DNA from: Escherichia coli
GTDB taxonomy: Bacteria > Pseudomonadota > Gammaproteobacteria > Enterobacterales > Enterobacteriaceae
DNA length: 64,000 nucleotides
Strand: one strand, 5' to 3'
Assembly: GCF_024700885.2 (NCBI RefSeq)
Contig: NZ_CP117016.1
The notes beneath the pieces are model-generated. The model was not told where the DNA came from and did not search any database. It saw only the letters and a program-made list of their open reading frames with translations. Positions 8,870 through 28,522 of the stretch are shown in pieces. The translations under genes and the position numbers were made by a program. How positions within the stretch are numbered: position 1 is the first letter of the stretch; each line of letters starts with the position of its first letter.

Positions 8870-11344
8870 TTATTGCGGAGTGACATCCTGAGGTCGCCAC
8901 CAGTATGTCTGGTTAAACTCTTTCTTCGAACGTTGCTCCATTTTACGCAAATAGCCTGGTGAAAAATACTCCTGCATCTGGTTAAAGATCATGTGATCGA
9001 GAGCCGCCTTCAAGTACCAGAGATTCGCACCAGGCATCAAACCTTTCCCCAGCTTCACCAGATCACCACCAGTCTGCTCACTCTTCCCTTCCACAGCATT
9101 TAACGGTATGCCCTGAGCAATCTTCACTACGTCATCAACCAGACCAGCTACCGGGCCAAGCATCGACGCCAGCGCGCCGCTTCCGTACCTAGTGTGATCT
9201 GACAATAAAAAGTCACCGTACAGGCCAAGACCACCACCTTTCAGTAGAGCACCAAGCCAGAATTTTGCGGCATCTTCTCCTGTCATCTCTCGAGGATTAC
9301 GACCAGACGCAAGGTCGTTAAGTTGCTGCGACAAAGCGCCAAGAATGGTCGTACTGGCAATAAACGTCGCAATATATGCCGCACGCCCACCAGCAGACGG
9401 CATACCCATAGCGCGTGACCAGTGACGCATAACAACCGAGATAGGGAACGATTTAAACAGGAAAACACTTCTCGTTAATTCACCTTTCCATGTTCCACGC
9501 TGAATACCAGAACCGGTTATCAGTTGCTCACGTGCTCCCGGTGTAATAACAGCCATATCAACTTCTTCAGTTACGGCACCGAGCAGTTTACGCATTGCCT
9601 CAAATTTCACGCGTTCAGGCTCACCAAGATGTTTAACTGCTGAATCAGGGATACGCATAATGCTTTCCGGCGTCAGCATCGTATTATTACCGTTCCCCCA
9701 GTCCTCCTGTTGCGCCAACTTCCATACGCTCCAGTCTGTGTCAGTAATCCCTTTGCTTTTCAGGATACGAAAATCAGAGTCATCAAGGCTACGAAGGTCT
9801 GGTGTCCGTGACACTACTTCTCCCAGGCTTCCCATCATGGTTACGCCATAGGCGCGCTTGTGCGCATCTGACCATGCTGTAAGCCCACTGGCACGCATTA
9901 CCGCCGTTGCCGCCCAACGAGACACTGACGGCCCCATATTATCCATCGCCCAGCGGTTAACGCTGCCAAGTAGAGATTCCATCGCCAGACCAGCGCGGCG
10001 CGCCCGCACAAGTTCTGTACGGTTCGTTGGGTCCATAGCTTCAAGCTGGTTGCGGAATAACTGGTTCATTGGAAGGTTGGTAACCTTCGCAGACAGATAC
10101 ATGGTTCCAAGATCAGAGAACGATGACAGCAACGCGGATCCGAGCCTGCTGGCAACCAGCCAGTTGCGGATATTGTCAGACCATCGCGCGATGTGCGGAT
10201 TCGCTACAGGCTGTGTCTTTCCGGAAATAAAGTTGTACAGATTCTCTGTGTTGTTCGCCAGCCGCTCGACTTTACCGGTTTTACTCGGGTTAGCTGTTGC
10301 CGTTTCTGCCTTAACCTGATCAAGAAGGGAGCGGAAAACATGATCGGGGTTTGGACCATATGTTTCCACCAGAGCAATATCTTTACTGATACCTTCCAGG
10401 TGACCGACCATGATTTCCCATAGAGAGCGATCGCCATAAAGTTGTTGATATTGGAGATAGGAATCTGCATCTTTGAAATGTATCTGTCGTGATGCATTAC
10501 CACGGTTAGCACGTGCGCCGGAAATTCGCATTCCGGTATCAGTAAGCTTATTCAGCCCACCAGTAGCGATCGTGTTATAAGCCTCTCCAAGAAATGCAGA
10601 CAACTCGGCATCGTTCATCAGTTGTCCATCGGCTCTGGTATAATATTTGCGATCCAGCTTACCTATAACATCGCTAACCCACTTATCCTTTGATACCGCC
10701 CCAACCTTTTCCATAGAATGATGTTGAGGGATCCCCCAGTTTTCGAGATAGCCAATGTCCCCACCAGCATCATTAAACCGGCGGCGCAGCAGCTCTGCAA
10801 CTTCTCTCCACGCTTTAGCACCTTTTCTTGCTTTAGCATTGCCAGTATTTTGCCCCCGCATTTCATATACCAGGTCACGTACGCCCGCTTCATCTTCAAA
10901 CAGGCCAAAAAAGCGAGGATCAACTGCTTCAAATGCCTCCTGCAATTGACTCAATGCATAATCACGAGTGGCTTTTGTTCTGGATTCAACAGAGAGGAAA
11001 TTCGATTTACCGTCTGCATTAAAAGCAATAGTACGGTTAAGAGCGCCAAGTTTCCCATCAGCCCCTTGATAGCTATTGATAAATTTATCCAATCTCTGAC
11101 GTGCGGCTATAGTGAGAGCCACACGACGTTTCTTTAATGCCGCTTCTCGCTGTAATTCTTCAGATGCCAATTGTGCTGCACGATACAACCGTTCTGATTC
11201 GGAAAGTTGTCGCCACGACATCGGGTCATCACGAGCAATGGAGCGCATATTTCGATAAATGCGGTCTTCAATGTTCTGTATTTCTCGCGCCGTTAACGTG
11301 CGCTGCGCCGCCTGCTGGACCGCTTGTATACATTCCTGTCTCAT
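8870..11344 (-). CDS. internal virion / DNA-ejection protein (824 aa)
   Basis: Large protein in the gp15/gp16 position of a T7-like virion operon. Confidence 0.55.
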   Translation of the reverse strand: MRQECIQAVQQAAQRTLTAREIQNIEDRIYRNMRSIARDDPMSWRQLSESERLYRAAQLASEELQREAALKKRRVALTIAARQRLDKFINSYQGADGKLGALNRTIAFNADGKSNFLSVESRTKATRDYALSQLQEAFEAVDPRFFGLFEDEAGVRDLVYEMRGQNTGNAKARKGAKAWREVAELLRRRFNDAGGDIGYLENWGIPQHHSMEKVGAVSKDKWVSDVIGKLDRKYYTRADGQLMNDAELSAFLGEAYNTIATGGLNKLTDTGMRISGARANRGNASRQIHFKDADSYLQYQQLYGDRSLWEIMVGHLEGISKDIALVETYGPNPDHVFRSLLDQVKAETATANPSKTGKVERLANNTENLYNFISGKTQPVANPHIARWSDNIRNWLVASRLGSALLSSFSDLGTMYLSAKVTNLPMNQLFRNQLEAMDPTNRTELVRARRAGLAMESLLGSVNRWAMDNMGPSVSRWAATAVMRASGLTAWSDAHKRAYGVTMMGSLGEVVSRTPDLRSLDDSDFRILKSKGITDTDWSVWKLAQQEDWGNGNNTMLTPESIMRIPDSAVKHLGEPERVKFEAMRKLLGAVTEEVDMAVITPGAREQLITGSGIQRGTWKGELTRSVFLFKSFPISVVMRHWSRAMGMPSAGGRAAYIATFIASTTILGALSQQLNDLASGRNPREMTGEDAAKFWLGALLKGGGLGLYGDFLLSDHTRYGSGALASMLGPVAGLVDDVVKIAQGIPLNAVEGKSEQTGGDLVKLGKGLMPGANLWYLKAALDHMIFNQMQEYFSPGYLRKMEQRSKKEFNQTYWWRPQDVTPQ

Positions 11345-11349
11345 TTAAT

Positions 11350-13152
11350 TTAACCTCTCAAGAAACACGCCACAGCAACATCAAACAGGCTGGAATCCTG
11401 TATTGCCTGCTCACTTTCCCTGTTCGCTTCATCCAGTACTTCTCGCGCGCTGCGCGATTGTGGATTACCATCATCATCCAGCACGGTGATTATCATGTCA
11501 GGTGATTCAAGCAGCGAGTCTTCAGCTATGCGAAGATCAATACCTCCCGCCTGATCCGCCATCATTTTTTGTTCTGCCTGTTGCAATATTTTACCAGGCT
11601 CAAAAGGAGCTACTTCGTCTGGCGTCCTGACCTCTGCTGTTTTATAGAATGAAACAGCCTGAGCATTAAGTTCACTTTCTGCCTGCTGTCTCCGAGCCAG
11701 TTCTGCTCGAGCTTCAAAAAACTGACCGCCAGGCTCGTGCGGTGCCAACGCGTTACGGGAAAATTCCAGGCGTTCTTGTGCCTGCCGGATTCGTTGATCA
11801 ATATCGCGAAGTCTGGCCTGTTTATCTGATCGAGCACGAGACAAAGCTTTACCGCTACCGGTTGGCTCTTCTGCAAGAATTTGTGCCCGCTGTTCAGTGA
11901 GATTTTCAATAATTCGTTGGCTATTAGCGATTTCAGACTGGTAAACCTGTCTATCGCCACGCGGCAAAAGCTGCGCGGCCTGTTCTTCAAGCAACCGATT
12001 TTCTATAGCGCGCGCCGTTACTCCATCATCTACAGATGACAGAGCCTCATTAACTGCCTGAGACAGCAGACTCTTGCGCCCAGGAATTTCACTGAAAGAT
12101 GCAGACTCAACAATGCTGGCAACGTCTACAGGTCTCCCCTGGCTAACATCAGACATAGCTTTTCGCAGAGCCTGAATGTGAGAATTGCGCGAAAGCACGT
12201 TGATCGGCACGCCGGGCGCAATATCAATTTCAGCATGATGAGCGGCATTCGCCGCCAGTGCAGCATCGATATCAACTGGTGAAAAATTTGGTGCGTTTGT
12301 AGACTCGCCGCGAGAGTTAATAAATCTGCCGACACCACCAAACGCCACCCCAAGAACAGCATCAATAGCAATTGACTGTCGATCCAACACATCATACTGG
12401 TTAGCCATTTCGCTATAGCCACCATCACGAAGCGTTTTTGCAGTAAGCCCACGCTGTGCCATACCGAACGCAATATTTGTACCTGCGGCATAGGCAATAT
12501 CTGGCGTTGCACGTACTGCTGTTGCTGCGGCGCGTCGCACTGAACTCTCACCCGTCCGCGCAAGCTGAGCCGCCACACCTTCCGCCAGCGCACCACCAGC
12601 ACGTAACCCGAGGCTCATAGGGATCAGTGTTCCGACACCAGCAGTAATGCCCTGCACTAATCCCGCTTCCTGCGCCGTCCTGAAATCAACACCCTGTGCT
12701 GTCAGCCGTTCAAACTCAGAAAAACCCTGTAGCGAAGTTACCGCCGCTGCACCTCCGACAGGACCACCGAGCGTTGTACCGACAACAGCCTGCCCGCCCA
12801 TATCGAACAACCCATAAAGAACCTGCCCGGCGGTTCCGGTTGTCGCGGCATCAGGCGTCAGCCGCTTAACCTGCTGCTCTGCTAGTTTTCTCTGCTCGGC
12901 AATGTATGAAACTGAAGTGTCATTGAGCGAGGTGTTTTCGTTAACAAACTGAGCAATCGGGGATACGATTTTATCCATCCCTGCCCAGAGCAACTGATCT
13001 GGCTTTGCCACCAGCCCGGAGTACAAACCAGACAATGCCGCTCCTACAGCATTGTCGAAAAAACCAACATCGCTGTTAAAGCCAGCTGGATTTGATGCTG
13101 CTTCGTCAAGCTGCTGATTCTGGTTTACTGGATTAAGGCCAAAGTAACTCAT
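11350..13152 (-). CDS. internal virion / ejection protein (600 aa)
   Basis: Position; Gly/Ala-rich; translationally coupled to neighbours. Confidence 0.55.
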
Positions 13153-15956
13153 TGCGGAATATCTCCGGAGAATCTCTGACGCTTCTGTGTCAGATTAAGA
13201 ACAACGGGAGAACCATCATCTTTCAGCAGATAACCAGTACCAAGTTTCACCAGGTACTGACTATCGCCGTAACTTTGCAAACCATACTGACCAGGCGGTG
13301 TTTTTATCCCGGAGCCGACAACTTGTTCATTCCAAGCCTGATTAACCTGCTTATCGAATTGCTCTGCAGACATTCCCCACGGCAAAAGGACATTCCCCAT
13401 TCCGTTATAGTCATGCACGCCACCTGTAGCTACGTTAACAGCCTGTTTCCAGATATCATTGTCAATTTCGCCTGATACCACGCCTTTTTTCGCCATCACA
13501 CCAGCGTAATAATCCTTTGCGATCTCGTATGCCATTGATGCCCCCTGAGCGTCACCAGCAAATGCATCCTTCACCATGTCAGAAAACTCAAGGCGAAGAT
13601 CAGCATCTTTAGGCATCGGAATACCTTTCGCATCATCAGTACCTTTACGAGCCGCCGCGCCAGCAAGAATTGTCTGCGCAGCGGTTTCAGGAGACACGGA
13701 AACATCCGGATTAAACCAGTTTTTTTCTGCCAAAATACCACCAGGCTTATCCATCAGTATCCCGGCAACGGCAGCAGATGGAGCGTTGGCACTGATCTGC
13801 TGTAGTGCTGACATATACACCTGCCCACCACCAGTGCTCTGCCTGATGGTATCGAGATATGCTGCCTGTTGGGAAACTGGAGCATCACGAAAGAAAACAC
13901 CGATCTGATTGGCCTCGTCTTTGGAAAAGAACGTCAGTGGAGTGCCATATGACTTAGCAAGGTCACTGACCTGAGCGGCACGCAAGGCAACGCTCTGTCC
14001 AAAGTTATCCTTATTGCTCATGTCGATAGGCTTTGCCTGTCCGGAGGCAAGAGAGAACTGCACAGGATCCGACTGCCGCTGCTTTATCACCTGATTTGCA
14101 GCCGAAACAACGTTGTCATAAAGAGCTGCTCGTGCCGCATAGCCCTCCCCTGTATCACCAGTATCCGGGCGTAATTGCTCAACATATGCTGTAATGCTGC
14201 TTGTCGGCATGTTGCGGAAAGAGCCTATATACTGTCCAGCGATCTGCGTATTCTTAAACTCGGTATATCGCAGGTTTCCTTCTCTGACTCCATAAGCTGC
14301 AATAAAATCATCCTCACCAGGTGGGTTAGGAAATTCAACGCCACGCATATATGCAGCTGTCGCATCGCGAACCTGGCTGTCAATCATCGTTTTATATTCA
14401 GCCTGCTGCTGCCGACGCAGTTGATCCGCCTGTCGCATAAAACTTGCCTGCGCCTCAGGAGATGCCGCATCGAATGCTGCATTACCGGTATAGCGTTTGG
14501 TGTTGGTTGGAATTGTTGATAAACCAAGTGCTGCACTGACACCAGCAGTTAACTGCTGATCACTGTATGGCTGGCTACCGTTCTCATGATGGATAATGGC
14601 TGCACAAAGCGCCTTCAGGGTATCAGGATTTGATGCATCGAGAGGCTCATCAGCAGAAACGCCAAGTTGTTCGCACACTGCTTTGATATATGACATAGTG
14701 TCATTTTTATCAGTAGGCGGTGCCCAGCGATTAATTATCTCGCTGACTGTATCAATACCCTGCCGCTGATACGACATCAGGTTCCGCCCTAATGCACGAA
14801 TCCCGTGTTCAGGTGTTTCGAATTTAGCAAATCGACCATCATCACCGGTCTGGCCTACCCACGGATTAGTTTTGCTGTATTCGAGATTTCCTGGGTTGTT
14901 ATTACGGATACCGCGAGCACCACCTTTTACGTAATACTGATCCTGCTGTTCGTGAAGTTTCTCAGCATAGGCGGTCGCATTCTCAGGGTTATCGAATATT
15001 CCAAGGTGTTTTCCAGTTTTTTCATACAGAGCAATAGCTTCGTCATCGGAAAGCAATTTTCCATCATCACTGACGGTGGGAATGAGAACTTCTCCAGCTT
15101 CCGTGCCTATAGAAATTGTTCGAACGGTACTGATAGTCCCATCTTCATTTTTGACAGATGGGCGGTTGAAGAGATTAATATTTCCTTGAACAACCATTCC
15201 CTTTGTGGACTTTGGCTCTCCACCATAAGGATTAACAATAGCCCGCTTTGATCCAGCAGCAGTATCGCTTAGCTCGCCATTACTTTGGATAAATGAGATC
15301 GCATTGTTTGCCGACCACTGGGACAATGCTGCATCAGCAACCTTCTCTTTAAACTCGATTTTCTTGGCCTGTATTTGCTCGTCGCTCCAGCCATGTGCAG
15401 CACCGTACTCCTCAATTTGCTGGAAAGTTTGCTTATTAGCCAATATGTATGCGGCATTGTCGCCATACAATGCTGCGGCATTTTTACCATTGTTCAGCAG
15501 CGTCGCCTGAAACTGACCTTCTTCGTAGGCATTAATTTGCCCTATCTCGTGCCGCCCGGCCTGCGTAGTGAACTGAATGCGCTGCTGCTGTGCCTGCTGC
15601 ATGAAAGCATTACGAGTCTGTTCATCCGGCAGCGACATAGCCAGTTGTTCGACCTGAGCATCAAACTGCTGCGTATACTCCTGACCTTTTCCAATAGCAT
15701 TTTTCCCTTTCAGGTTAAGCAATCCTGTTTCAGTATTATTCAGCAGATCACTGCTTATCTGACTGAGGTTAAGAGATGCCTCCTGAGCCAGAGCGATATT
15801 GGCACGCTGTTTTGCCTGCCCCAAAACATCAATTGCCTCTGTCCCTGCCCGAACAAAAGCATCACTAATACCTGGCTGAGAAAACGTCTGCAAGCCTGCT
15901 GACTGAACTCCACGACTCTCAACCTGACGTCCGGATACTGTTGGTACGACTGGCAT
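13149..15956 (-). CDS. internal virion protein with possible cell-wall hydrolase-like segment (935 aa)
   Basis: Position; start set at MPVVPTV where ATG overlaps upstream stop; segment [12 protein letters not shown] could be a muralytic motif (uncertain). Confidence 0.55.
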
Positions 15957-16501
15957 TATAATCCTCCGGGTAATCTGGTTCCTGCTGCTGCCCCGATTGG
16001 CGCAGGGGTGCTTTGAGTAAACGGACTCCACGTCCCACCAAACATCTGGTACGCACCGTATGCCTTCAGAGGCGCAGTGAGCAATGTTGTTGCTGCTCCC
16101 ACATTCCCCTGTTTACGGGCTGAACTGGCTTCTGCTTTATAGTTGGCAGCCTGAACCTGATAACCGTAAGCCTCGCGTTGCGCGTTATTCACCGTCGTCA
16201 GCGAATCAAGAGCGCCAAACTGGGCAGTGTCGCCAAATATATCCAGCGCGTTACCGGTAGATAAATCGGCGCCGGTCGCCCCCATTGTCGCCGCCTGTGT
16301 ACCAAGCCGCTGTCGGGTCTCTCTGCGCCGTTGCTCAGCTTCAGCGTTACCTCTGTTTATTGCATCATTTGCCTGAGCTGTGGCTATATCTGCGTTCGCT
16401 TCTGCAACCTTCGAGGCATACTTTCCCTGTTGGTACTGGGTGTATGCCTGAATGCCACTCATGGCGAGCATTGCGCCACCAGCAATAACCGGATCGCACA
16501 T
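15956..16501 (-). CDS. internal virion protein B-like (gp14-like)
   Basis: Size and position after tail tubular genes; Ala/Gln-rich. Confidence 0.5.
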
Positions 16502-16965
16502 TATTTTCTCTCCATGTGAAATCTGTGGAAATTAAGACCAAGAGCACCATAAGGCGCGGCTTCTTCAAGCCTGAATCCAAGCCAGTGCAGCCATGCTTTG
16601 GCAACATGGTTTCGCTCGTCGACGTAGTTTTCCAGGCGTGGATAAACTGCCAGCATCTGCTGCAATACAGGGCGGCAGTGGCGAAGAAATGTCTTCTGAT
16701 ATTTTTCAATACGGCTGGTTCCTACCAGCCAGGGCGTACCATTGCCACCGATCATTGACGCCGGAGATACGCCAAACATGGTTACCAGTTCTCCGTTCGC
16801 AAATCCTGACCAGGCCATAGTCGCAGTGCGAAGACCAACACGCAGCGCATCTTCGGTAGTCATCAGCGATACCGCATACAGTTCGTCAATATCAGCCTGA
16901 CGAACATCCGGAAAAATCATCTGAAGATGCTCTTCGGTAGCGGGAACAATTCGAACATCGATCAT
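16501..16965 (-). CDS. internal virion protein A-like (gp13-like) / hypothetical
   Basis: Size and position only. Confidence 0.4.
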   Translation of the reverse strand: MIDVRIVPATEEHLQMIFPDVRQADIDELYAVSLMTTEDALRVGLRTATMAWSGFANGELVTMFGVSPASMIGGNGTPWLVGTSRIEKYQKTFLRHCRPVLQQMLAVYPRLENYVDERNHVAKAWLHWLGFRLEEAAPYGALGLNFHRFHMERK

Positions 16966-19436: not shown

Positions 19437-20041
19437 CAGGACAACCTCGCAATGGTAAACTCGTCAACCGGTGGCTGTGGTTCCTGTGATTCATTCTGGC
19501 TATGCGAGCCAGCACTAAGAATCACGCGATTGTACATATTGAGGGCAAACGTACCGAGGTCTGCATTCCCAGTCAGCGCCATGTTAATAGCTGCCGCAAG
19601 ACGCCAGGCCAACGCCTCCATAAAAATGGCATCAAACATGTTCACATCTGTAACACGAGAGACATACTTGAGCCATGCCTGAGGCTGGTCTGTGTAGATC
19701 AACTTTCCTGTTCCGTTGGTGTCTACACCTACTTCGTACTGAACGCGCATTGCTGCTGTTGGATTGCGTACACCAGGAAGCATAATTTCAGTAATGCGCA
19801 GACAATCGGACGGGTACTGATACGCATATTCCCAGTCAGGCGGTAGATTGCTCGTATCTGCAAGCGCCACGCGTTTGGTAGCAAAGTTCCAGTCAAAATC
19901 AGAAAGCACAGCATCACGGCAGGCCTCAAAGTGCAGCGAACATTCCCCCGCTTCCTTGCTGGCTTCCGTCAGGCTGTTAATGCTGCGGCTATTGCCAATA
20001 TTGGACAGCGCACGATTGCAGATCTCTACTACAGAGGCCAT
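19436..20041 (-). CDS. tail tubular protein A (T7 gp11-like)
   Basis: ~200 aa; N-terminus CNRALSNIGNSRSINSLTE resembles gp11 N-terminus. Confidence 0.7.
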   Translation of the reverse strand: MASVVEICNRALSNIGNSRSINSLTEASKEAGECSLHFEACRDAVLSDFDWNFATKRVALADTSNLPPDWEYAYQYPSDCLRITEIMLPGVRNPTAAMRVQYEVGVDTNGTGKLIYTDQPQAWLKYVSRVTDVNMFDAIFMEALAWRLAAAINMALTGNADLGTFALNMYNRVILSAGSHSQNESQEPQPPVDEFTIARLS

Positions 20042-20370
20042 TACTCACCCCCATTGCCGTACAGGGTTTCAGCCGCTGATTTTTCTACATCCCCGGAAAC
20101 AGGAGCGATCGCCATATCAGTGATCTGCAGATCGGCACTGCGATTAACACCATCGTCAGTTTCTCTGGCAGACAGGCCTCGAATAACAGCCTTTGCAGTT
20201 ATCATCACTTCTGTTCCGACGCCCTGAGGTTGCGCCTTCAGCTTATTCAATGTGTCGTTATTAAGAGTGATGCACAGCCCCCACGGGTATTCATCGCGAG
20301 TTCTGGTTTCTCCGCTCTCATCCTGGTAGCTGTCAGTGCCGGTTTTGAGGTTTACGAGTTCCATATACAC
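20041..20370 (-). CDS. hypothetical virion-module protein
   Basis: ORF in structural operon, overlapping stop/start. Confidence 0.45.
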   Translation of the reverse strand: MYMELVNLKTGTDSYQDESGETRTRDEYPWGLCITLNNDTLNKLKAQPQGVGTEVMITAKAVIRGLSARETDDGVNRSADLQITDMAIAPVSGDVEKSAAETLYGNGGE

Positions 20371-20414
20371 TCCTGCAATAAAGGGGCCGAAGCCCCTTGT
20401 CTGATCCGCGAGGC

Positions 20415-20759
20415 TTACACGCCCAGTTCTTTACGCTTATCTGCGATCTTCTCGCGGAGCGTTTCGGCTTTGGCGTTATGGTGTGGCTTCTCGTTAAAGA
20501 GCAATTCGTACTCTTCACGGAGCTTATCCAGTTCACCATCATCTGACACATCGTTGATGATTTTGGTGCTGGTTGCTGCCATTGACACCTTTCCTGCAAC
20601 TTTTGCTTTTGCCTGTCTGGCTGCATCGTTAACAGGTTCCAGTGCGCTACCAGGCTCACCTTCGTATTCGATTTCTGCCCCCTCCGGCCACAGTGTGTTA
20701 TGGATATGAGAGAGGCGCAGAACGCGGTATCTTGGTTTCTCACCTGACATCGATATCAC
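20415..20759 (-). CDS. hypothetical virion-module protein
   Basis: ORF in structural operon. Confidence 0.45.
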   Translation of the reverse strand: MISMSGEKPRYRVLRLSHIHNTLWPEGAEIEYEGEPGSALEPVNDAARQAKAKVAGKVSMAATSTKIINDVSDDGELDKLREEYELLFNEKPHHNAKAETLREKIADKRKELGV

Positions 20760-20760
20760 C

Positions 20761-21198
20761 TTAACCAGTTACTTTTGAGCGGATCGGGTACGGCGTATTG
20801 GCATCAACATCCAGACTGATACCAGCAGTGAATTTGCCATCCGTTAGTGGGCCAGTTGCGACGGAGTAGTTAACACGCAGATATCGCTGAACACCGGCTG
20901 GCACCTTTGCAGAAACAACTCGCTTACCTGCTGTCAGGGTGGCCTTTGCCAGTGCGCCACTATCATAAATAGTGGTCCAAGAGCTGTTATTCTCACTCGT
21001 CTGCAACTGGATGTTTACAGTTGCCTCACCACTTGCCGTGGCGGCTTCGTTAACCAGCGCCCAAAACTCAAGCGGGTAACCCACGTCGATATCGCGACGG
21101 TTTCCATCAATTGGACCGAGATCGATTACGTCAGTAGAAGCCGCGGTATCAGTTACCGCCTGTGCTTCGGAGAACATCAACAGTTTGTCGGTGATCAT
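20761..21198 (-). CDS. hypothetical head-associated protein (possible decoration protein)
   Basis: Position directly downstream of the capsid gene. Confidence 0.4.
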   Translation of the reverse strand: MITDKLLMFSEAQAVTDTAASTDVIDLGPIDGNRRDIDVGYPLEFWALVNEAATASGEATVNIQLQTSENNSSWTTIYDSGALAKATLTAGKRVVSAKVPAGVQRYLRVNYSVATGPLTDGKFTAGISLDVDANTPYPIRSKVTG

Positions 21199-21249
21199 CT
21201 TCTTTCTCCATTAGTGGGTCTGTTACGACCCACAGGTTAATAACAGGCG

Positions 21250-22242
21250 TTACACCACGCGGGCTTCTGTTTCCAGAAGCGCATCAGTTTCACGGATTGG
21301 TACACCACGGAATGACGTCCACCACTCGCCTTCTGTCTCTTTTACGCTGATAGCCAGAGATGTTTTCTCCAGAGACTGCAGATCAAGAGCCTGGCCTACA
21401 GTGCGGTTCATGTAGAACACCGGGCGGCCCATGCCACGGTTTGGAATGCGATGTAGTGCTTTAACCATCAACTTCGCAATATTTGCGGCAGAGGAAGGTT
21501 CTGAAAGATTGCTGACATCGATGTTTGCAATGCGAACAACATAACGCCAGTCACGCAGAGCAAGCCCGTTGTCCCATTTGTAATGGGTACGGTAGCCTTC
21601 GTACTTGCCGCCATTCGCATCTTCCAGTGTCACCTGGCCTTTATCTTCCATCTGGATGCCAGCCTTCTGCCCTTTCGGGAAGATGCCATGCACGGTGTTT
21701 TCACCCCACACCACTAACCAGATTGAGGTGTTATCTGTACCCGTGCCACCAGCATCAATGATGTTCTGAGCATTACCCGCAGACAGGCTGGAATAGCGGG
21801 AGGACAGTCCCATAAACTGCTGAGGGTTAACGCTGGAATCACCATAAAACAACGTCTGCGCCATCTGCTGATTCATCGCTTCAATAAATGCGCGGTCTTC
21901 AGACAGGCGGAACTCGGCGGTATTGCCGTTCAGATCAGCCAGTGACTTATCGACTTCAGCATAGGTTTCCAGCATGCCAACGGAATCGGTTACCTGCACT
22001 GTGGTTGATTTGCTTGGCTGTACGCCATAGTTCAGCAAACGCCAGGTAGCTGAAGGTAAACCAGAACGAATGGTGGTTCGGTGTCCGGTAGGAAGGTTCC
22101 CTTCGACAAAAGGCATATCCTGAAGGATCGGGTTAGTTTGACCGAGAAGCTCGATAATCTTATCGACTTTCCCGTTTGGATCGACGCGCTTACCCCAGTC
22201 AGCCAGCGTTAGCGCAGTTAAGCCTTTAACAGCCATTGTCAT
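21250..22242 (-). CDS. major capsid protein
   Basis: 330 aa, between scaffold and tail genes; strong codon usage. Confidence 0.7.
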   Translation of the reverse strand: MTMAVKGLTALTLADWGKRVDPNGKVDKIIELLGQTNPILQDMPFVEGNLPTGHRTTIRSGLPSATWRLLNYGVQPSKSTTVQVTDSVGMLETYAEVDKSLADLNGNTAEFRLSEDRAFIEAMNQQMAQTLFYGDSSVNPQQFMGLSSRYSSLSAGNAQNIIDAGGTGTDNTSIWLVVWGENTVHGIFPKGQKAGIQMEDKGQVTLEDANGGKYEGYRTHYKWDNGLALRDWRYVVRIANIDVSNLSEPSSAANIAKLMVKALHRIPNRGMGRPVFYMNRTVGQALDLQSLEKTSLAISVKETEGEWWTSFRGVPIRETDALLETEARVV

Positions 22243-22250
22243 TTCCTCTC

Positions 22251-22952
22251 TTATTTGCCATAGAGCACTTCGGCCGCACTACGCTGGCCTTCATTACCAC
22301 CGGTGACCATGCCATCTTCAGACATCGCCTTTCCGATTTTCACGAACGTTTTGACCAGATCAGGGTGATTACCCAGCCCGGTGGTGTTCAGATATTCTTT
22401 GAGTTCAGGTGTCCCGAACTGGTCAAGCGCACGCTGTGCGGCGCTAAGGTTAGAAATCAACTTGTCGCCACCGATTTCTTTGTCAGCTTTTACATCCGCA
22501 GCCCACTGCTCGGTTGTTTTCTGCCAGGCTTCTGCCTGGCGCTGCTGAACACCTGCCAGAATCTTCGGATAAGCATCAACCAGCTTTTGCGCTTGCTCGT
22601 TGGTCAGGTTAAGTTCTCGCGCCACTGGCTCGAATTCCTTCAACGCTTCTGTATCCAGCTCTACGCCTTCGGCAGCATGAAATTCGTACTTCTCCGGCGC
22701 ACCCTCTGGTTTATCGCCGTCCTTTTTTTCACCCTGCTTATCGTTTTCAGATTTTTTTTCATCATCAGGTTTATCGACATCAACAACAGGTTGTGGCTTA
22801 TCACCTTCCTGTTGTGATGGATCACCAGCTGGAGCAGGGTTATCACCTGCATGCGCTGACGGTTCTGACGCAGCCGGAGCTGCCCCACCATCGACTTGTT
22901 GCTCATTGCAAAGACGGCGATACAGCAAACGCTCAAATAAACTCATGATCAC
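22251..22952 (-). CDS. capsid scaffolding protein
   Basis: Acidic, Pro/Glu/Lys-rich low-complexity N-half, located between portal and capsid genes. Confidence 0.6.
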   Translation of the reverse strand: MIMSLFERLLYRRLCNEQQVDGGAAPAASEPSAHAGDNPAPAGDPSQQEGDKPQPVVDVDKPDDEKKSENDKQGEKKDGDKPEGAPEKYEFHAAEGVELDTEALKEFEPVARELNLTNEQAQKLVDAYPKILAGVQQRQAEAWQKTTEQWAADVKADKEIGGDKLISNLSAAQRALDQFGTPELKEYLNTTGLGNHPDLVKTFVKIGKAMSEDGMVTGGNEGQRSAAEVLYGK

Positions 22953-23245
22953 TCCTGTTCACTGGCCTCTTTGGCCATCTTCAAATACTGTTCAGGGCAA
23001 TGCGCCATAACGCGCTGAAACAGTTCCAGCGCCAGATTGCGTTGCCCCTCATTAAATGCCATTGCCATAGCATCCATCGGAGAGATAGCGGAAAACACCC
23101 GGCCTTTCTCCAGCACCGACCAGACAACGCGACGCCCCTGTTCACTGCTCATGACAAAGCGAATGTCATCAATTTCACGCTGTGCCATGTCACGTTGCTT
23201 ACGGGCGTTTTCTTCTTTCAGTTGATCGTCTTCGTAATCTGTCAT
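22949..23245 (-). CDS. hypothetical head-assembly protein
   Basis: Position between portal and scaffold; 4-nt overlaps. Confidence 0.45.
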   Translation of the reverse strand: MTDYEDDQLKEENARKQRDMAQREIDDIRFVMSSEQGRRVVWSVLEKGRVFSAISPMDAMAMAFNEGQRNLALELFQRVMAHCPEQYLKMAKEASEQE

Positions 23246-24921
23246 TGTGATTGCCCACCCTGACCACTAACTGCATTCGCCATAGCTGACAAAACACTCG
23301 GATCCGAAGTTTTAGCTTCGCTTAGCGTCTTGGCACCCTGTGCCGCCGCCATCCCCATCGCCATCATTTGTTGCTGCTGTTGTTGCTGTGCCCGTTGCTG
23401 GCGAGCCTGCTCAACCTGTTCCTGCGGAACAATGACGGTTGGAGACACTCCGGACATATCAGCGAATGCATCGATCGCCTGATCAACGTTGAGTTTGTCG
23501 AGAGCTTCTGGTTTCGCTTGCGCAAGTTGACCAATAAAGTTGACCGTGGATGCCAGACTGGACAGGCCGATAGACTTCTGCGCCTGAGCCATGACGGAAA
23601 TGTATTCGACCTTCAGGGGCATACCTTCCATCGCGTCAGGCGGTGGCGGCAGCATGTTTTTACGCACCATCATCGAGAAAGCGCGGTCAATGAGAGGATT
23701 AAGACATTCGTCGTTCAGACGCTCCAGAACCGGCCCCAACATCAGAAGTTTTTCTTCTTTCATTTCGATCACCGCTTCAACAGGCATCGAGCGGGTATTG
23801 ATGTTCTGCAACATCATGAACAGATCGACAAAGTAGGCGCTGTTAATGATTTGACGAGTGTCCTGAATGTCTGCCACCAAATCTGCTGTACTGGGGTTAA
23901 CCAGATAAGCAGGCCTGAAACCATCCTGACCAGTAATCTGATCGATATACGTGATGTCGCCAGGAAGAAGGGAGGCACGCTGATTCTTGAGGGAAATCGG
24001 AGCAACCATCGGCGGATTGGTGGCTTTATCAATCAACTGCGACTTGCGCTTCTGGAGAAGCTGCAATGCCTTAACAGGTCCAAGCGCCAGCATACCCGGG
24101 CATGATGATCCATAAACATCTTCGCCGTTAACTTCCCAGCGCGGAGCCATAATTGGAAACTCATCGAATCCGGACTCACGCAACAACTTGTCGTTATCGC
24201 CACCAACCTCGTAATAAACCGATTTGAATGGCTTGTTCTTGCTATCCAGCTTCGATGTATCGCGGTCAATGTTCGGGTAAACCGAATGCATCACTTCAAT
24301 CCACTTCTCGTAGGTGCCGCTTTCCCACATGCTTTTTACGGATTCGCTGACGTTATTTAGCCCGAACTCCTGAACAAGCTGACGAACAGTCATAGAGAAC
24401 TTGCGAAAACAGGTGTCAACACTGCCACGAGGTGAGTTAGCCAGGTAGTAACTTCCTATCGGGAATGGCATTGTACGAATGATGTCCTCGTCATCCTCCA
24501 GCACCGCCATTGCGCCAGTGCTGTATGTGCCGAGGCTTCCGTATAACTGCGGCAGCGACTGATAGAGATTCGACTTATTGAACATATCGTTCATGCGGTT
24601 CTGCACCGCCTCAAGCCACAACTTAACAGGGCCATAATCCATCATTTCAGGATCTGGCGTAGCCAGGCGAAACCACGGACGCGCTGGGCTTGTGATGCCT
24701 GACATCATGCCGCTGGCGAGAGTGCGCGCCGCCATAGTCCCGGTCGAATCAATAATGCGTGTATTGCGTCGATCGTTACGGTTGACCTCAGAAGTCAGAA
24801 AGCGGGAACCACGCGGGTTGATGTAATCACTCAACTCGCGCCAGTGCGGCTCGAACGACTGACGCTCGCTTTCAAGTTGTGCGAACTGTTTGTTCAATCG
24901 CTCTTTAGTTGTTTCCGCCAT
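23242..24921 (-). CDS. portal protein (head-to-tail connector)
   Basis: 559 aa; Gln/Ala/Met-rich C-terminal tail as in T7-like portals; first large gene of the head operon. Confidence 0.75.
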   Translation of the reverse strand: MAETTKERLNKQFAQLESERQSFEPHWRELSDYINPRGSRFLTSEVNRNDRRNTRIIDSTGTMAARTLASGMMSGITSPARPWFRLATPDPEMMDYGPVKLWLEAVQNRMNDMFNKSNLYQSLPQLYGSLGTYSTGAMAVLEDDEDIIRTMPFPIGSYYLANSPRGSVDTCFRKFSMTVRQLVQEFGLNNVSESVKSMWESGTYEKWIEVMHSVYPNIDRDTSKLDSKNKPFKSVYYEVGGDNDKLLRESGFDEFPIMAPRWEVNGEDVYGSSCPGMLALGPVKALQLLQKRKSQLIDKATNPPMVAPISLKNQRASLLPGDITYIDQITGQDGFRPAYLVNPSTADLVADIQDTRQIINSAYFVDLFMMLQNINTRSMPVEAVIEMKEEKLLMLGPVLERLNDECLNPLIDRAFSMMVRKNMLPPPPDAMEGMPLKVEYISVMAQAQKSIGLSSLASTVNFIGQLAQAKPEALDKLNVDQAIDAFADMSGVSPTVIVPQEQVEQARQQRAQQQQQQQMMAMGMAAAQGAKTLSEAKTSDPSVLSAMANAVSGQGGQSQ

Positions 24922-24935
24922 TTCAATGACTCCGG

Positions 24936-25247: not shown

Positions 25248-25569
25248 CTAAAGAGTTCATTCCGGTTACTAACCTGACTGGCTTGTCGTTAAATTGAACA
25301 GGTGGAGTGAGCTTTTATTTTGAGCAGTACGGCGTATGGCACATGCGCCGATAGCGGTCTGGATACGTTTAAGGGGCACCCTCCCTTGCTCGGGCAAACG
25401 AACCAGGTAGCCGGAATGTGCAAGTCGAGCGGTTTTATTCCGCGCACGGGGATTCACCATCCCGGCTATTCGGTGTGACGCCTCGGAATAGACGAGGGTA
25501 CAACGATGAGAGCATTTATGGAGCTGCGACAAAGTGTGGCGCATTAACAGGCTAAGTGCTCTCAGCGTT

Positions 25570-25646
25570 GTGGCATTAGCTCAGCTGGACAGAGCAACCG
25601 CCTTCTAAGCGGTTGGTCGCAGGTTCGAATCCTGCATGCCACGCCA
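25570..25646 (+). tRNA. tRNA-Arg (anticodon UCU), phage-encoded
   Basis: Perfect 7-bp acceptor stem GTGGCAT/ATGCCAC, D-arm GCTC..GAGC, anticodon loop CTTCTAA, T-loop GGTTCGAATCC, discriminator G and CCA. Confidence 0.9.
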
Positions 25647-25689
25647 GAATCACGCCTAAGGACCGTGATGCCAGAAGTTCCAGGTGCTT

Positions 25690-25732
25690 GGCGGTGATGG
25701 TTTCCCTTGAAGGACTATCACCGCCCTTTTTT
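25690..25732 (+). terminator. rho-independent terminator downstream of tRNA
   Basis: 9-bp stem GGCGGTGAT / ATCACCGCC followed by T-run. Confidence 0.55.
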
Positions 25733-25942
25733 ACAGCAGGACGCCATTGCGATGACTTCATGCTGTAAACCCGTACAGCCACGGAAGGCATAACTCATTG
25801 CTTCCAGTTCGCCCGGTTCGCCGGGCATTTTTTTGGCGTGATACGTCACAATTATGATATCGATGCAGATTACGACATACATGAAAAACATGTCATAGTA
25901 TCTCCTGAGGTTAATCTCGATTCAAAAAGAGGATGATTTATA

Positions 25943-26290
25943 ATGATTAAAATCAATAACGTACGTGGTGCTAACGTTAGCGTCAACGGAGAAGACTTCA
26001 CTGGTCATCATATTACGATTAACAATGGAAAAGTGATCGTTGATGGTGTCGAAAAAAATAGCAATCTTGACGGACAGATTAACGTAACAATTAATGGAAG
26101 CGTGGAAGGCGTTGAGATTGAAAATGGATCAGTGACTGTAAGCGGTGATGCACATTATGTGAAAACTATGTCTGGTGATGTCCATTGTTCCAATGTATTG
26201 GGAAATGTAAACACCATGTCTGGAGATGTAATCTGCGAAACTGTTGGTGGAAACGCCAGCACAATGTCTGGAAATATTATCAAGAAATAA
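25943..26290 (+). CDS. small repeat-rich beta-strand protein (115 aa), moron; possibly bactofilin-like beta-helix
   Basis: Strong Shine-Dalgarno AAGAGGA; internal repeats of V/I-x-G-x-V and TMSGDV motifs; opposite strand to the surrounding operon. Confidence 0.55.
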   Translation: MIKINNVRGANVSVNGEDFTGHHITINNGKVIVDGVEKNSNLDGQINVTINGSVEGVEIENGSVTVSGDAHYVKTMSGDVHCSNVLGNVNTMSGDVICETVGGNASTMSGNIIKK

Positions 26291-26375
26291 TTATTTAAAA
26301 ATAAAGCCCGCCAAATGCGCGCGCTTTGTTTTATCCTCACCAGAGGATATCAACGACATTATCCCCACCAGCGGA

Positions 26376-27851
26376 TTAAGCATAGGGATCGTAATCTGTA
26401 ATGGCCTTGCCTTGCTGGTTCTGCTGACCTGGAATTCGCAGACGCTTCGACACAGGGAACGCAAACGTCAGCAGTAGCGCATCGCCTTTACCCGGCGAAC
26501 GCCCAAGCCGCTCCTTGATATCCTCCTTCGGTTCGATAACGATTTTACCGTCCACGCGAACTTTGTACTCTGCCGCCGACAGGTCGTCTGCAGTTTCCTG
26601 GTCATCCAGCATGCCGCCCAGCCTCAGCCATGTCTTGCATGAGTTGAACATCTCCCCGCGCTTGTTGAGCATCTGAGGGTCAGTTGACGCGCCACCGAAC
26701 GGAACAAGTTGCCATGTGCGCCCCCAGCCGTCACCGATTGACTTCAGGCCAGTACCGTAACCGAAGTCGATGAACACCGCGTCGGCCTGATACTGGTCTT
26801 CAAAGTCAGCGATACGCTTCGCCATAATCAGATCGTCGGTGGTCTTGTTGCCAGTCCACAGCACCTTACTGTGCAGCCCCTGCCGCAGGTATATCACCGC
26901 GTCATCAACGCCGGAGTATGCCGGGTCAACTCCGATTATCACCGGAGCATGTGCCACCTGCGCAGCGGTTACCACCCGTTTCATTGCCTCGTCAGTAAGA
27001 CCGGTAGGGATAAACTGCAATTCAGATGCATCAGGGAATATGCCACGCACACGGATTTTAACGAAGTCGCTGTCTTCCCCGTAGTCATCAACCCATTTCT
27101 GCAACTGCTGTTTGTTAGTGCCTTCCACCGTCCGGCTGTCAATCTGCGCAGTTTTCCAGCGGTGTTTATATTTGCGGAAACATTCTCGGAAACGTCCGGT
27201 ATTACGCGTCGGGTTTCCGAACGCCACCCAGATAATCTCAGTGTCTTCGTCCGTAAGCGCACCCTCGGCAACTTCCCACACCAGATCCGCAATGTTCGAC
27301 GCTTCATCGAATACCACGATGATACGTTTGCGCTCGTTGTGTAGTCCGGCGAACGCCTCAGTATTGTGCTCAGACCAGGGGATTGCGTCAGCTCGCCACC
27401 GCTTGTCGTGCCCAGGATCATTGCTGTACATCGCGGTAGCGGTACAGGTGAACCAGTCTTTCGTGATAGCAAGGTTCGACCACTTGATAATTTCCGGCCA
27501 GGTCTTCGTTCGTAGCTGGTTGTCGGTGTTGGCGGTCACCACGATCTTACAATCCTCGCAAGTGGACATGCCCCAGTTGATCAGCATTGAGATGAATGCG
27601 GATTTACCAATACCGTGACCAGAAGCGCGTGCCAGCATAAGCGGCTGATAGCGCGTCTCTGGATTCTGCAGGTGATCACGTATCTCTCGGAACGCATCAG
27701 CCTGCCACTGACGTGGGCCGGTGGCATGTGCCAGTTCAGTCCCCTCTTCCCCCCACGGGAACGCATAGAGGGCATAGCCAAGCGGATCGTGAGTGAACCC
27801 TGCAATATCCTCGATCAACTGCTCTTCAGGAGATAACGCTGTATCTGTCAC
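26376..27851 (-). CDS. terminase large subunit
   Basis: Walker A-like SGHGIGKS; ~490 aa; followed by the portal gene. Confidence 0.85.
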   Translation of the reverse strand: MTDTALSPEEQLIEDIAGFTHDPLGYALYAFPWGEEGTELAHATGPRQWQADAFREIRDHLQNPETRYQPLMLARASGHGIGKSAFISMLINWGMSTCEDCKIVVTANTDNQLRTKTWPEIIKWSNLAITKDWFTCTATAMYSNDPGHDKRWRADAIPWSEHNTEAFAGLHNERKRIIVVFDEASNIADLVWEVAEGALTDEDTEIIWVAFGNPTRNTGRFRECFRKYKHRWKTAQIDSRTVEGTNKQQLQKWVDDYGEDSDFVKIRVRGIFPDASELQFIPTGLTDEAMKRVVTAAQVAHAPVIIGVDPAYSGVDDAVIYLRQGLHSKVLWTGNKTTDDLIMAKRIADFEDQYQADAVFIDFGYGTGLKSIGDGWGRTWQLVPFGGASTDPQMLNKRGEMFNSCKTWLRLGGMLDDQETADDLSAAEYKVRVDGKIVIEPKEDIKERLGRSPGKGDALLLTFAFPVSKRLRIPGQQNQQGKAITDYDPYA

Positions 27852-28522
27852 TGATTACCATCCTGACGTTCTTTGAGTCGCTTCCTGGCTGCTGCTATGC
27901 GATCAGCAATTGTCACATTCACATTAACATCCAGACGTTCTTTGAACGCGTTGACATCAACATGCTTACCAATCAGCTCAAGGTTCTTCACCTTGTCAGG
28001 CCATTTAATTTTTTTGAGGATTGTCTCTATCGAATCCTCGTTCATGTTCATGATGGTCGATGACAGATCAAAGCCACTAAGCGTAGTGCGCCAGATTTTC
28101 GGCCACTCGCGGATTGGCTTAAGGCTCCCATCGTCGTTGAGGATGTCGATCACATCCATCTGGTCGATCTCCACCAGGCGCATAAGAACGTAATCGGCAC
28201 TGACGCGCATTCGTTTGTTGCGCTCCTCCATCAGCTCGGCAATCCGTTTTTGAATGCGTTCATCGCGCATCATGACACTGGCTTTAACTGCCGCTGTATT
28301 TGGGGAGAATCCTGCGTTAATCGCTGCCTGAGTCTGGTTTTCAGGCGTTTTGATGTATGACTGGCAATAAGCCTCCTGCATTGCTGTTAGTGGCTTAAAT
28401 TGCGTTGATTTGCGTTTATAGGTTTTAGGTTCAGCAGGCATCATAACCACCGTGGTAATAGTTACCGTTTTGGTAATAGTACCATGCAAAACAAAGCCGC
28501 CATAGTTGGCGGCAGTATTCAA
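27848..28522 (-). CDS. terminase small subunit
   Basis: Overlaps terminase large start by 4 nt; start may instead be the MMPAEPK Met at 28444. Confidence 0.6.
   Translation of the reverse strand: MNTAANYGGFVLHGTITKTVTITTVVMMPAEPKTYKRKSTQFKPLTAMQEAYCQSYIKTPENQTQAAINAGFSPNTAAVKASVMMRDERIQKRIAELMEERNKRMRVSADYVLMRLVEIDQMDVIDILNDDGSLKPIREWPKIWRTTLSGFDLSSTIMNMNEDSIETILKKIKWPDKVKNLELIGKHVDVNAFKERLDVNVNVTIADRIAAARKRLKERQDGNQ

Follow-up and report, generated by a model that had tools for sequence, protein, structure and literature searches.

A phiV10-like prophage at guaA of Escherichia coli with a virion-gene block of the described epsilon15 type and tail and ejection genes in T7-type order

The interval 8870-28522 of the window, i.e. 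the whole 64,000-nt stretch of E. coli DNA that was analysed (contig NZ_CP117016.1), is almost certainly, as judged from its sequence, the virion-gene block of an ordinary phiV10-like (Uetakevirus, epsilon15-like) temperate short-tailed prophage, the architecture of which has already been described. It forms the structural operon within a 39-kb prophage that extends from about 1539 to 40571 and is inserted at the 3' end of guaA. The interval exhibited 97.8-98% nucleotide identity at 96-97% coverage to phages phiV10, PAS61, ZX5 and phiv142-3 and to O157 typing phages 9 and 10, and 17 of 17 structural proteins shared 95-100% identity with phiV10 p01-p20. Because isolated phages cover the interval to this extent at about 98% identity, the structural gene series is far beyond chance. 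Furthermore, 503 of 5,426 complete E. coli genomes carried the portal-to-nozzle block. The initial annotation had left the novelty of the region to database comparison. The phiV10/epsilon15 lineage is well described. Hardies et al. (2016; PMC4819975) published the homology of its tubular tail and internal virion proteins to those of T7, the RefSeq notes of epsilon15 already carry this homology, and it is established that temperate phages of the epsilon15 type have a T7-like tail architecture. The value of the present analysis lies mainly in correct annotation, in that the apparent 'mosaic' is a common, named prophage type.

The ICTV delimits a genus by the nucleotide identity to a member, which must reach 70% over the length of the genome. 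The whole 39-kb prophage showed about 77.6% to phiV10 (coverage times identity, summed blastn segments), which lies above this limit, and it belongs to the genus of phiV10, probably as a different species. The PAS61 paper gives 78.7% for PAS61 against phiV10, a range like that of the prophage. The guaA insertion site and the att core also agreed with those published for phiV10, epsilon15 and ZX5. The published attP core is attgagtgggaatgatt, with integration at the guaA 3' end (PMC9782041); the core at the guaA-side end, AATCATTCCCACTCAAT (40555-40571), is its exact reverse complement and overlaps the guaA stop codon, and the core at the yfgI-side end, AATCACTCCCACTCAAT (1539-1555), has one mismatch to it. 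This mismatch would suit a defective remnant that no longer makes particles, which we consider improbable, since no structural ORF is shortened and each shares 95-100% identity with its counterpart in phiV10, a viable phage, the genes for lysis, replication, the integrase and the repressor are in place together with both att cores, and the size of about 39 kb compares with 39.1 kb in phiV10. ZX5 and PAS61, with about 98% identity to the prophage in the structural operon, are temperate by experiment, and ZX5 is reported to be short-tailed. A tRNA-Arg(TCT) gene on the plus strand (25570-25646) lies in the same place in phiV10-type phages. No evidence contradicting the Uetakevirus identification was found. 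A P22-like (Lederbergvirus) identity was rejected, as the portal and capsid family matches never pointed there.

The structural genes form an uninterrupted minus-strand series of TerS, TerL, portal, scaffold-position protein, capsid, adaptor, nozzle, and two small and three large virion proteins; all operon genes given below lie on this strand. TerS (terminase small subunit, 27848-28522; PF03592, 1.4e-29) and TerL (terminase large subunit, 26376-27851; phrog_2, 99.4% identity to phiV10 p02) directly precede the portal gene, as had been noted in the initial annotation. TerL had no match among T7 proteins by BLASTP or phmmer and is not gp19-like; the RefSeq note on epsilon15 gp2 (TerL) gives it as Sf6-type. 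The portal protein (23242-24921; PF12236, 9.8e-187) matched the Carin-1 portal 8ck0_A (1.5e-178). T7 gp8 belongs to the same Pfam family (2.8e-113), the PHROG matches were reciprocal, and hhalign aligned the two proteins over the full length (E = 8.2e-10), so that the portal of a T7-type tail and ejection ensemble, one of the gp8 family, is present. A Bbp19-like small protein (22949-23245; PF25181) follows, and then the scaffold-position protein (22251-22946; phrog_458), which is acidic, of low complexity and 231 aa long. Databases label the latter 'protease' or 'peptidase'; a relaxed Pfam scan (E up to 10) assigned it to no family, no protease domain was found, and its position and composition suggest a scaffold. 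It had no similarity to T7 gp9 (hhalign E = 0.36). The major capsid protein (21250-22236; PF20911, 2e-149) belongs to the epsilon15 gp7/BPP-1 Bbp17 family, with PDB matches to BPP-1 3j4u (9.5e-129, 432 bits) and epsilon15 3j40 (2e-85, 290 bits), whereas T7 gp10A belongs to PF21703 (hhalign E = 0.32). A T7-type head, with a gp10A-family capsid protein and a gp9-family scaffold, was thus not found. Two decoration proteins complete the head genes, a BPP-1 Bbp16-type capsid cement protein (20761-21198; PF21190, 1.5e-45) and an epsilon15 gp10-type capsid staple protein (20041-20364; PF21628, 1.2e-51).

Pairwise comparisons of 19 virion proteins with T7 gp6.7-gp19 by BLASTP and phmmer gave nothing significant, and all links to T7 therefore rest on profiles or folds. 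The best pairwise match, between the portal and T7 gp16 (E = 0.002), was rejected as spurious. The adaptor (tubular tail protein A, gatekeeper; 201 aa, 19436-20041) required a fold comparison, because a 38-sequence profile against the single T7 gp11 sequence yielded an hhalign probability of 0.1. Foldseek with the AF2 model (pLDDT 85) matched Carin-1 8ck1_E (1.8e-16), T7 gp11 7box_N (5.8e-6, TM 0.58-0.60) and KP32 TTPA 5mu4, and the T7-type ensemble thus includes, by its fold, a gp11-type adaptor. At the sequence level, the profile-profile alignment with T7 gp11 was collinear and weak (hhalign E = 0.006), PF17212 (Tube) was not recovered by the relaxed Pfam scan (E up to 10), and the Carin-1 chain was matched at 1.6e-25; the RefSeq note on epsilon15 gp11 supports the assignment. 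The tail nozzle (tubular tail protein B; 823 aa, 16965-19436), for which a homologue search returned 18,281 cluster representatives at E <= 1e-3, matched the Carin-1 'Tail Nozzle' 8ck1_A over its full length (1.5e-216) and the T7 gp12 group over 498 columns (hhalign probability 95%, E = 1.9e-8), and is thus a T7 gp12 homologue, though PF25675 (Phage_nozzle) was not recovered by the relaxed Pfam scan (E up to 10). Tape-measure, tube and sheath genes were absent and all tail matches were to podovirus adaptors and nozzles, in agreement with the proposal of a podovirus rather than a siphovirus or myovirus.

Homologues of T7 gp13 and gp14 lie directly 3' of the nozzle gene, as in a T7-type ensemble. 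The gp13-like protein (internal virion protein A; 154 aa, 16501-16965) shares phrog_308 with T7 gp13 (hhalign E = 2.1e-4; PF11090 sub-threshold, E = 0.089) and has an acetyltransferase-like fold according to the literature. The 181-aa protein (15956-16501) scored 31.2 bits against a cut-off of 27 in PF24072, which includes T7 gp14 itself, and is named 'virion core protein, T7 gp14 family' in RefSeq; its direct alignment with T7 gp14 was weak (hhalign E = 0.055). The 935-aa virion protein (13149-15956; phrog_992 and phrog_7182, 'tail injection transglycosylase') is an epsilon15 gp15 homologue with a central muralytic domain (residues ~347-496; E1004 Gp29 N-terminus 4.5e-38, endolysin 7q47 4.9e-17), outside which no similarity to T7 gp15 or gp16 was detected (hhalign E >= 0.3). 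The 600-aa protein (11350-13152; phrog_1145) is an epsilon15 gp16 homologue (32% identity; 97.5% to phiV10 p19) without a detectable T7 counterpart by hhalign against gp15 and gp16 (E >= 0.5), and a T7 gp15 (internal virion protein C) homologue was thus found in neither protein (E >= 0.3). The last gene of the interval (8870-11344; phrog_684), which the initial annotation had taken for the tail fibre, encodes instead an 824-aa homologue of epsilon15 gp17 (27% identity, E = 2e-107) and probably of the T7 ejection protein gp16 (internal virion protein D), 99% identical to phiV10 p20, a 'virion structural protein'. Its residues 306-686 aligned to T7 gp16 794-1165 (hhalign E = 4.8e-5, 339 columns, probability 68%), and it had no sequence match in PDB. 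Among the matches listed, its relatives were at least 88% identical and useless for a profile, and small epsilon15 and BcepC6B profiles were used instead; BPP-1 sequences entered the profiles of other proteins. No NCBIfam model matched the tail and ejection proteins.

The three large proteins could alternatively be external parts of a tail tube or plug below the portal and not a T7-style ejected internal core. The genetic model of epsilon15, as summarised in PMC12391199, places gp15 and gp17/16 in the packaging/injection device, and the 935-aa and 600-aa proteins resemble neither T7 gp15 nor gp16 detectably. However, the 824-aa protein aligns with T7 gp16 and its counterpart epsilon15 gp17 is classed as IVP-D in Table 2 of Hardies et al. 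(2016; PMC4819975), the external tail is already explained by the gp11-fold adaptor and the gp12-type nozzle, which are separate proteins, and the only PDB match of the 935-aa and 824-aa proteins by sequence is that of the muralytic domain (E1004 Gp29). We thus regard an external location as unlikely, and ejected internal proteins as the preferred reading. The T7 layout put forward for the interval is real in its order, with the portal, adaptor, nozzle and gp13-, gp14- and gp16-like proteins linked to T7 by families, profiles or fold, but the interval contains no fibre gene. Likewise, the designation as a T7-like virion module applies to the tail and ejection genes but not, at the sequence level, to the capsid, scaffold and terminase; no sequence link to T7 was found for the terminase, scaffold, capsid, two decoration proteins, and 935-aa and 600-aa proteins. 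Many genes of the operon are named 'hypothetical protein' in RefSeq, yet roles can be assigned to the adaptor, nozzle, gp13-like and gp16-like proteins.

The operon ends, outside the interval, with a gene for a 98-aa hydrophobic protein (8378-8674; phrog_3075, unknown function), which replaces phiV10 p21-p23, and with a terminator-like GC-rich hairpin and T-run (8352-8369, minus strand), at a place equivalent to that of an annotated terminator in phiV10. Beyond this hairpin, a separate transcription unit encodes a 1024-aa tailspike (4819-7893, minus strand). The gp17-like N-terminal anchor named in the initial annotation does exist, but on this tailspike, 1 kb outside the interval. The N-terminal ~165 aa, folded like the T7 gp17 N-terminus, constitute the Uetakevirus anchor, and similarity to phiV10 p25 (68% identity) is confined to residues 1-165. 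The anchor shares phrog_1640, 27277, 2710 and 8460 with the T7 gp17 N-terminus at the same profile positions and matched the Carin-1 fibre 8ck1 (1.4e-32); its alignment to the T7 gp17 N-terminus was collinear and weak (hhalign E = 0.013), with PF03906 sub-threshold (E = 0.012). Foldseek matched the T7 gp17 N-terminus 7boz_a (6.9e-4) and 7ey9_b (rmsd 2.1 A over 84 columns), in a model with a mean pLDDT of only 69 and an N-domain near 90. The T7-type ensemble thus has its gp17 N-terminal tail-binding domain in a gene outside the interval. In Uetakevirus tailspikes, an exchangeable receptor-binding domain is joined to a conserved N-terminal anchor, which in phiV10 YP_512279 comprises the first ~205 aa (PMC10408124), and the present tailspike has this anchor. 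Its receptor-binding domain (about residues 200-1024) shared at most 32% identity with any of 50,697 phage records, and its C-terminus is a Peptidase_S74 intramolecular chaperone (PF13884). At the phiV10 Oac position, a plus-strand gene (3644-4768) encodes a 374-aa hexapeptide-repeat sugar O-acetyltransferase-like protein, an 'acyltransferase' in RefSeq, with weak NeuD/WcaF/WbbJ-type matches, all under curated cut-offs, and no match to phiV10 DNA. This gene is a candidate O-antigen-modifying (superinfection immunity) gene. In these sequence comparisons, only the receptor domain of the tailspike and the acetyltransferase next to it were without close phage relatives. The two may, tentatively, form a cassette, as yet uncharacterised, by which one O-antigen is recognised and, in the lysogen, modified; the serogroup would be one of E. 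coli that characterised Uetakevirus tailspikes do not yet cover. Serogroup specificity is best sought in this variable cassette.

By homology, TerS and TerL package DNA through a portal of the T7 gp8 family, and the capsid that receives it has the HK97 fold, is of the epsilon15 gp7/BPP-1 type and is reinforced by the Bbp16-type cement and gp10-type staple proteins. The short tail consists of the gp11-fold adaptor, a dodecamer, and the gp12-type nozzle, a hexamer. By analogy with T7 and epsilon15, the gp13-like, gp14-like, 935-aa, 600-aa and 824-aa proteins may be packaged or assembly proteins, and at infection these five may be ejected, digesting peptidoglycan and building a trans-envelope channel. 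The tailspike would dock on the adaptor-nozzle junction via its gp17-like N-terminal domain, and its exchangeable C-terminal domain may recognise, and probably cleave, O-antigen. The acetyltransferase, in turn, probably modifies the O-antigen of the lysogen, by which superinfection would be blocked.

In the early region, a tyrosine integrase (416 aa, 39114-40364, minus strand; Arm-DNA-bind_3 and catalytic domain) and an HTH_3 repressor (34681-35265, plus strand) were found in the same prophage, as had been reported. The repressor gene diverges from a 76-aa cro-position ORF (34296-34526, minus strand) without a family match, and phiV10 p40 and p41 are the counterparts of the two. The replication genes (32332-33929, minus strand) bear out the lambdoid O/P module of the initial annotation only in part: the loader (32332-33132) is of the lambda P family (PF06992, 8e-56), but the initiator (33114-33929) carries HTH_36 and DnaT domains in place of lambda O. 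Early-region DNA matched 502 phage records, many Stx-converting phages among them, at 90-99% identity. The core idea of a T7-type tail and ejection order in a temperate phage with early genes that probably come from the lambdoid pool holds. A phage of the T7 family proper (Autographiviridae) turned temperate might also show the portal, adaptor, nozzle, gp13, gp14, gp16-like protein and fibre anchor in T7-type order. The lack of the RNA polymerase that defines this family refutes such a reading and leaves it practically no probability. No phage RNA or DNA polymerase was found; the RefSeq annotation of the prophage contains no single-subunit RNA polymerase, and the longest ORF outside the virion and spike genes, and the largest non-structural one, is that of the 416-aa integrase. 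Furthermore, the terminase genes lie ahead of the portal and not at the right end after fibre and holin, the capsid and scaffold are of other families, and the 98%-identical phages are classified by NCBI in Uetakevirus and not in Autographiviridae.

T7 (NC_001604) resembles the phiV10-like prophage in the order portal, scaffold position, capsid, adaptor, nozzle, gp13, gp14, large ejection proteins and anchored fibre, with homology or a shared fold in the portal, adaptor, nozzle, gp13, gp14, gp16 and gp17 N-terminus. In contrast to T7, the prophage is temperate, lacks both polymerases, has the terminase genes at the opposite end and differs in capsid and scaffold families; it has two decoration proteins absent in T7, an extra 600-aa protein and a fibre gene apart from the operon, and its muralytic domain is in the gp15-position protein and not at the gp16 N-terminus. 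The closest systems, Escherichia phage phiV10 (NC_007804), vB_EcoP_PAS61, vB_EcoP_ZX5, phiv142-3 and O157 typing phages 9/10, have the same gene order, and phiV10 and near-identical phages also share the guaA att site, integrase, repressor, P-family replication gene and tRNA-Arg. Relative to phiV10, 3440-7458 is replaced (tailspike receptor domain and downstream acyltransferase), the Bro-N antirepressor region has given way, over 8347-8866, to the 98-aa ORF, the 935-aa protein has a 98-aa insertion (window 14921-15251), another moron lies between TerL and portal, and several early-region swaps occur. The type member, Salmonella phage epsilon15 (NC_004775; cryo-EM capsid 3J40), has an identical gp1-gp20 order, with 94%, 81%, 85% and 88% identity in TerL, portal, adaptor and nozzle, respectively, but only 35-43% in head genes and 27-52% in ejection proteins, and its seroconversion genes are of the O-antigen ligase/polymerase type. 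The temperate Bordetella phage BPP-1 and Burkholderia phage BcepC6B, of the epsilon15 structural homology group, have the same order of TerS, TerL, portal, scaffold, MCP, cement, adaptor, nozzle and ejection genes, and the capsid protein scored closer to BPP-1 than to epsilon15; they differ in having their own DNA polymerase, primase and helicase and other fibres, and BPP-1 has a diversity-generating retroelement. The solved tails closest to that of the prophage are those of Cobetia marina phage Carin-1 (8CJZ/8CK0/8CK1) and Legionella phage LME-1 (9EFK), both described as T7-like in the LME-1 paper. These two differ in hosts and non-structural genes, and Carin-1 has the depolymerase fibres Dpo31/36.

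In the E. coli chromosome, yfgI (908-1447) and guaA (40557-42134) flank a prophage of approximately 39 kb, whose long late operon, on the minus strand, is the interval 8870-28522. Both prophage ends carry a 17-bp core, AATCA[C/T]TCCCACTCAAT (1539-1555 and 40555-40571). On the guaA side, the core shares bases with that gene's stop codon. Reverse-complemented, this right-hand copy is identical to attgagtgggaatgatt, the attP core published for phiV10, epsilon15 and vB_EcoP_ZX5, the last of which is described as a temperate short-tailed phage that integrates at guaA (PMC9782041). The window matched strain MLI114 NZ_CP117013.1 at a rounded 100.0%, with 20,000 versus 20,008 bases across the first 20 kb; small indels relative to this record were present, and the acyltransferase comprises 374 aa in the window and 375 aa in RefSeq. 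The window may therefore represent a sister strain or a different version of the assembly.

Megablast comparison of the interval with 50,697 phage records gave a best group consisting of vB_EcoP_PAS61, phiv142-3, vB_EcoP_ZX5, phiV10, and O157 typing phages 9 and 10 (97.8-98.0% identity, 96-97% coverage). Enterobacter phage Tyrion matched at 82% identity and 85% coverage, and Salmonella phage epsilon15 gave partial matches at 77%. All 17 proteins from TerS through the 824-aa protein (8870-11344) were 95-100% identical to phiV10 p01-p20, and the flanks also matched phages of the phiV10 type, both in the lysis genes and in the early region, which encodes integrase, RecET, repressor and replication functions. 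[quoted passage not shown] Over the whole prophage, coverage times identity against phiV10 summed to ~77.6%, which indicates membership of the same genus, probably as another species. The initial annotation left open whether its mosaic was novel; it is already known from Uetakevirus, the phiV10/epsilon15 lineage. Nothing in the interval is novel, and the flagged combination is a hallmark of the genus, on record from the time the epsilon15 and phiV10 genomes were published (references 58 and 59 of PMC9782041). The portal-to-nozzle block was present in 503 of 5,426 complete E. coli genomes, mostly at 95-99% identity.

Window proteins and T7 proteins were scanned against the same libraries, small profiles were built for both groups, and two window proteins, the adaptor and the tailspike, were structure-modelled. 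The portal (23242-24921), with PF12236 in both the window and T7 proteins and reciprocal PHROG hits, aligned over its full length with its T7 counterpart (hhalign E=8.2e-10). The nozzle (16965-19436) aligned over 498 columns with a T7/T3/SP6/phiKMV gp12 profile (hhalign probability 95%, E=1.9e-8), and its nearest solved structure was the Carin-1 'Tail Nozzle' (1.5e-216). The AF2 model of the adaptor (19436-20041; pLDDT 85) matched the Carin-1 connector (1.8e-16), T7 gp11 (5.8e-6, TM ~0.6) and KP32 tubular protein A in Foldseek. Among the putative ejection proteins, the gp13-like 154-aa protein (16501-16965) shared phrog_308 with T7 gp13 (hhalign 2.1e-4), the gp14-family 181-aa protein (15956-16501) scored above the PF24072 cut-off, and residues 306-686 of the 824-aa protein aligned with gp16 794-1165 (hhalign against the gp16 group, E=4.8e-5). 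The nozzle belongs to a very large family, with 18,281 cluster representatives (50% identity) at E<=1e-3 and 9,133 at E<=1e-30 among 1.84 billion proteins. In many of the listed relatives, additional sequence precedes the conserved C-terminal region of ~520 residues.

Sequence comparison with T7 proteins revealed no link for the terminase, whose TerL is noted as Sf6-type in the epsilon15 record, and hhalign revealed none for the scaffold-position protein (22251-22946), the 935-aa protein (13149-15956) or the 600-aa protein (11350-13152). The capsid (21250-22236) carries PF20911 versus PF21703 for T7 (hhalign E=0.32), and the prophage has Bbp16-type cement and gp10-type staple proteins, both lacking in T7. 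Because links were found for the portal, tail and ejection proteins and none for head and packaging, the T7-like portion is the portal-tail-ejection ensemble, excluding the head and packaging genes. The 2016 study by Hardies et al. came to this conclusion too, identifying epsilon15 gp12 as tubular tail B, gp13 and gp14 as IVP-A and IVP-B, and gp17 as IVP-D (PMC4819975); for gp11, a reference to T7 tubular protein A already stands in the RefSeq entry of epsilon15. In terms of homology, the initially proposed T7-like virion module holds for the portal, nozzle, adaptor, gp13-like, gp14 and gp16-like proteins, but not for the scaffold-position protein and capsid.

Within the operon, the head genes (20041-22236) form a mosaic with the remaining genes. 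Compared with epsilon15, the capsid, cement, a 111-aa ORF and staple were only 35-43% identical, whereas TerL, portal, adaptor and nozzle were 81-94% identical, and the BPP-1 capsid (3j4u) was a better-scoring match to the capsid than was epsilon15 gp7 (3j40). Databases (phrog_458, RefSeq) name the acidic, low-complexity scaffold-position protein 'protease' or 'peptidase'; scans detected no protease domain in it, and the name probably survives from older annotation. Between TerL and the portal, the segment 25570-26304 contains a tRNA-Arg(TCT) and a repetitive 115-aa ORF (25943-26290) on the plus strand, opposite to the operon. The ORF segment (25835-26304) had no DNA-level similarity to phiV10 and so is a swapped moron.

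By homology, the late operon would build a podovirus particle with terminase, portal, HK97-fold capsid and two decoration proteins, and a tail predicted to consist of a dodecameric adaptor and a hexameric nozzle. Considering work on T7 and epsilon15, we propose that the gp14-like and gp16-like proteins, along with the lineage-specific 935- and 600-aa proteins, may be packaged and then ejected for envelope crossing. The literature also offers a view in which epsilon15 gp15, gp16 and gp17, whose homologues are the 935-, 600- and 824-aa proteins, form an external tube (PMC12391199), though we consider this unlikely here. Under the preferred packaging and ejection, the 935-aa protein may hydrolyse peptidoglycan during ejection; its muralytic domain (residues ~347-496) is the functional counterpart of the T7 gp16 N-terminal transglycosylase. 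Six trimeric tailspikes may attach via the gp17-like anchor and recognise O-antigen. Compared with phiV10 p18 (837 aa), the 935-aa protein has an insertion of ~98 aa (14921-15251) just upstream of the muralytic domain; of the 3-4% of the interval to which phiV10 does not align, this insertion makes up the greater part.

The tail fibre initially placed within the interval is not there; its last ORF (8870-11344) encodes the gp16-like protein. Downstream of 8870 follow a hydrophobic 98-aa ORF (8378-8674, minus; phrog_3075, function not known in the database), which is the final operon gene, a strong, terminator-like GC-rich hairpin (8352-8369, minus), a small plus-strand ORF, and the 1024-aa tailspike (4819-7893, minus), separated from the operon. 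The phiV10 Bro-N antirepressor region is missing from the prophage (8347-8866), with the 98-aa ORF there instead. Tailspike residues 1-165 shared 68% identity with the anchor of the phiV10 tailspike, with no similarity beyond. In phrog_1640, 27277, 2710 and 8460, this anchor and the T7 gp17 N-terminus matched at identical N-terminal positions, and one-to-one hhalign was collinear (E=0.013). The anchor also matched the Carin-1 fibre chain of a solved tail complex (1.4e-32), and the tailspike model (mean pLDDT 69, N-domain ~90) matched T7 gp17 N-terminal chains in Foldseek (7boz_a, 6.9e-4; 7ey9_b, rmsd 2.1 A over 84 columns). These four lines of evidence, PHROG, hhalign, Carin-1 and Foldseek, argue for a T7 gp17-like anchor, bearing out the initial remark on it, though the gene lies outside the interval.

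Judged from database matches, the only segments without close phage relatives lie outside the interval, namely the tailspike receptor domain and an acetyltransferase. The receptor-binding domain (~residues 200-1024; 4819-7296, minus) had <=32% identity to any phage record, with the best matches, at 32%, in vB_EcoP-683R2 and Gally, and a Peptidase_S74 intramolecular chaperone domain closes the C-terminal end. The tailspike gene was also present in E. coli EC0026B genomes. The 374-aa hexapeptide-repeat acetyltransferase-like protein (3644-4768, plus) gave weak NeuD/WcaF/WbbJ-type matches, all far below curated cut-offs. It occupies the slot of the membrane O-acetyltransferase Oac in phiV10 and is a candidate seroconversion gene of an enzyme class unlike Oac. 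Exchange of such segments is documented among Uetakeviruses (PMC10408124).

The early region contains, as initially annotated, a tyrosine integrase, which has an arm-binding domain, and an HTH_3 repressor, which is divergent from a 76-aa ORF; a RecT and PD-(D/E)XK nuclease pair and an MT-A70 methylase are also encoded. The proposed lambdoid O/P replication module was half right, since a lambda-P-family protein is present but the initiator combines HTH_36 and DnaT domains. The early-region DNA is common to hundreds of lambdoid and Stx-converting phages. 'Lambdoid' is fair as a loose label.
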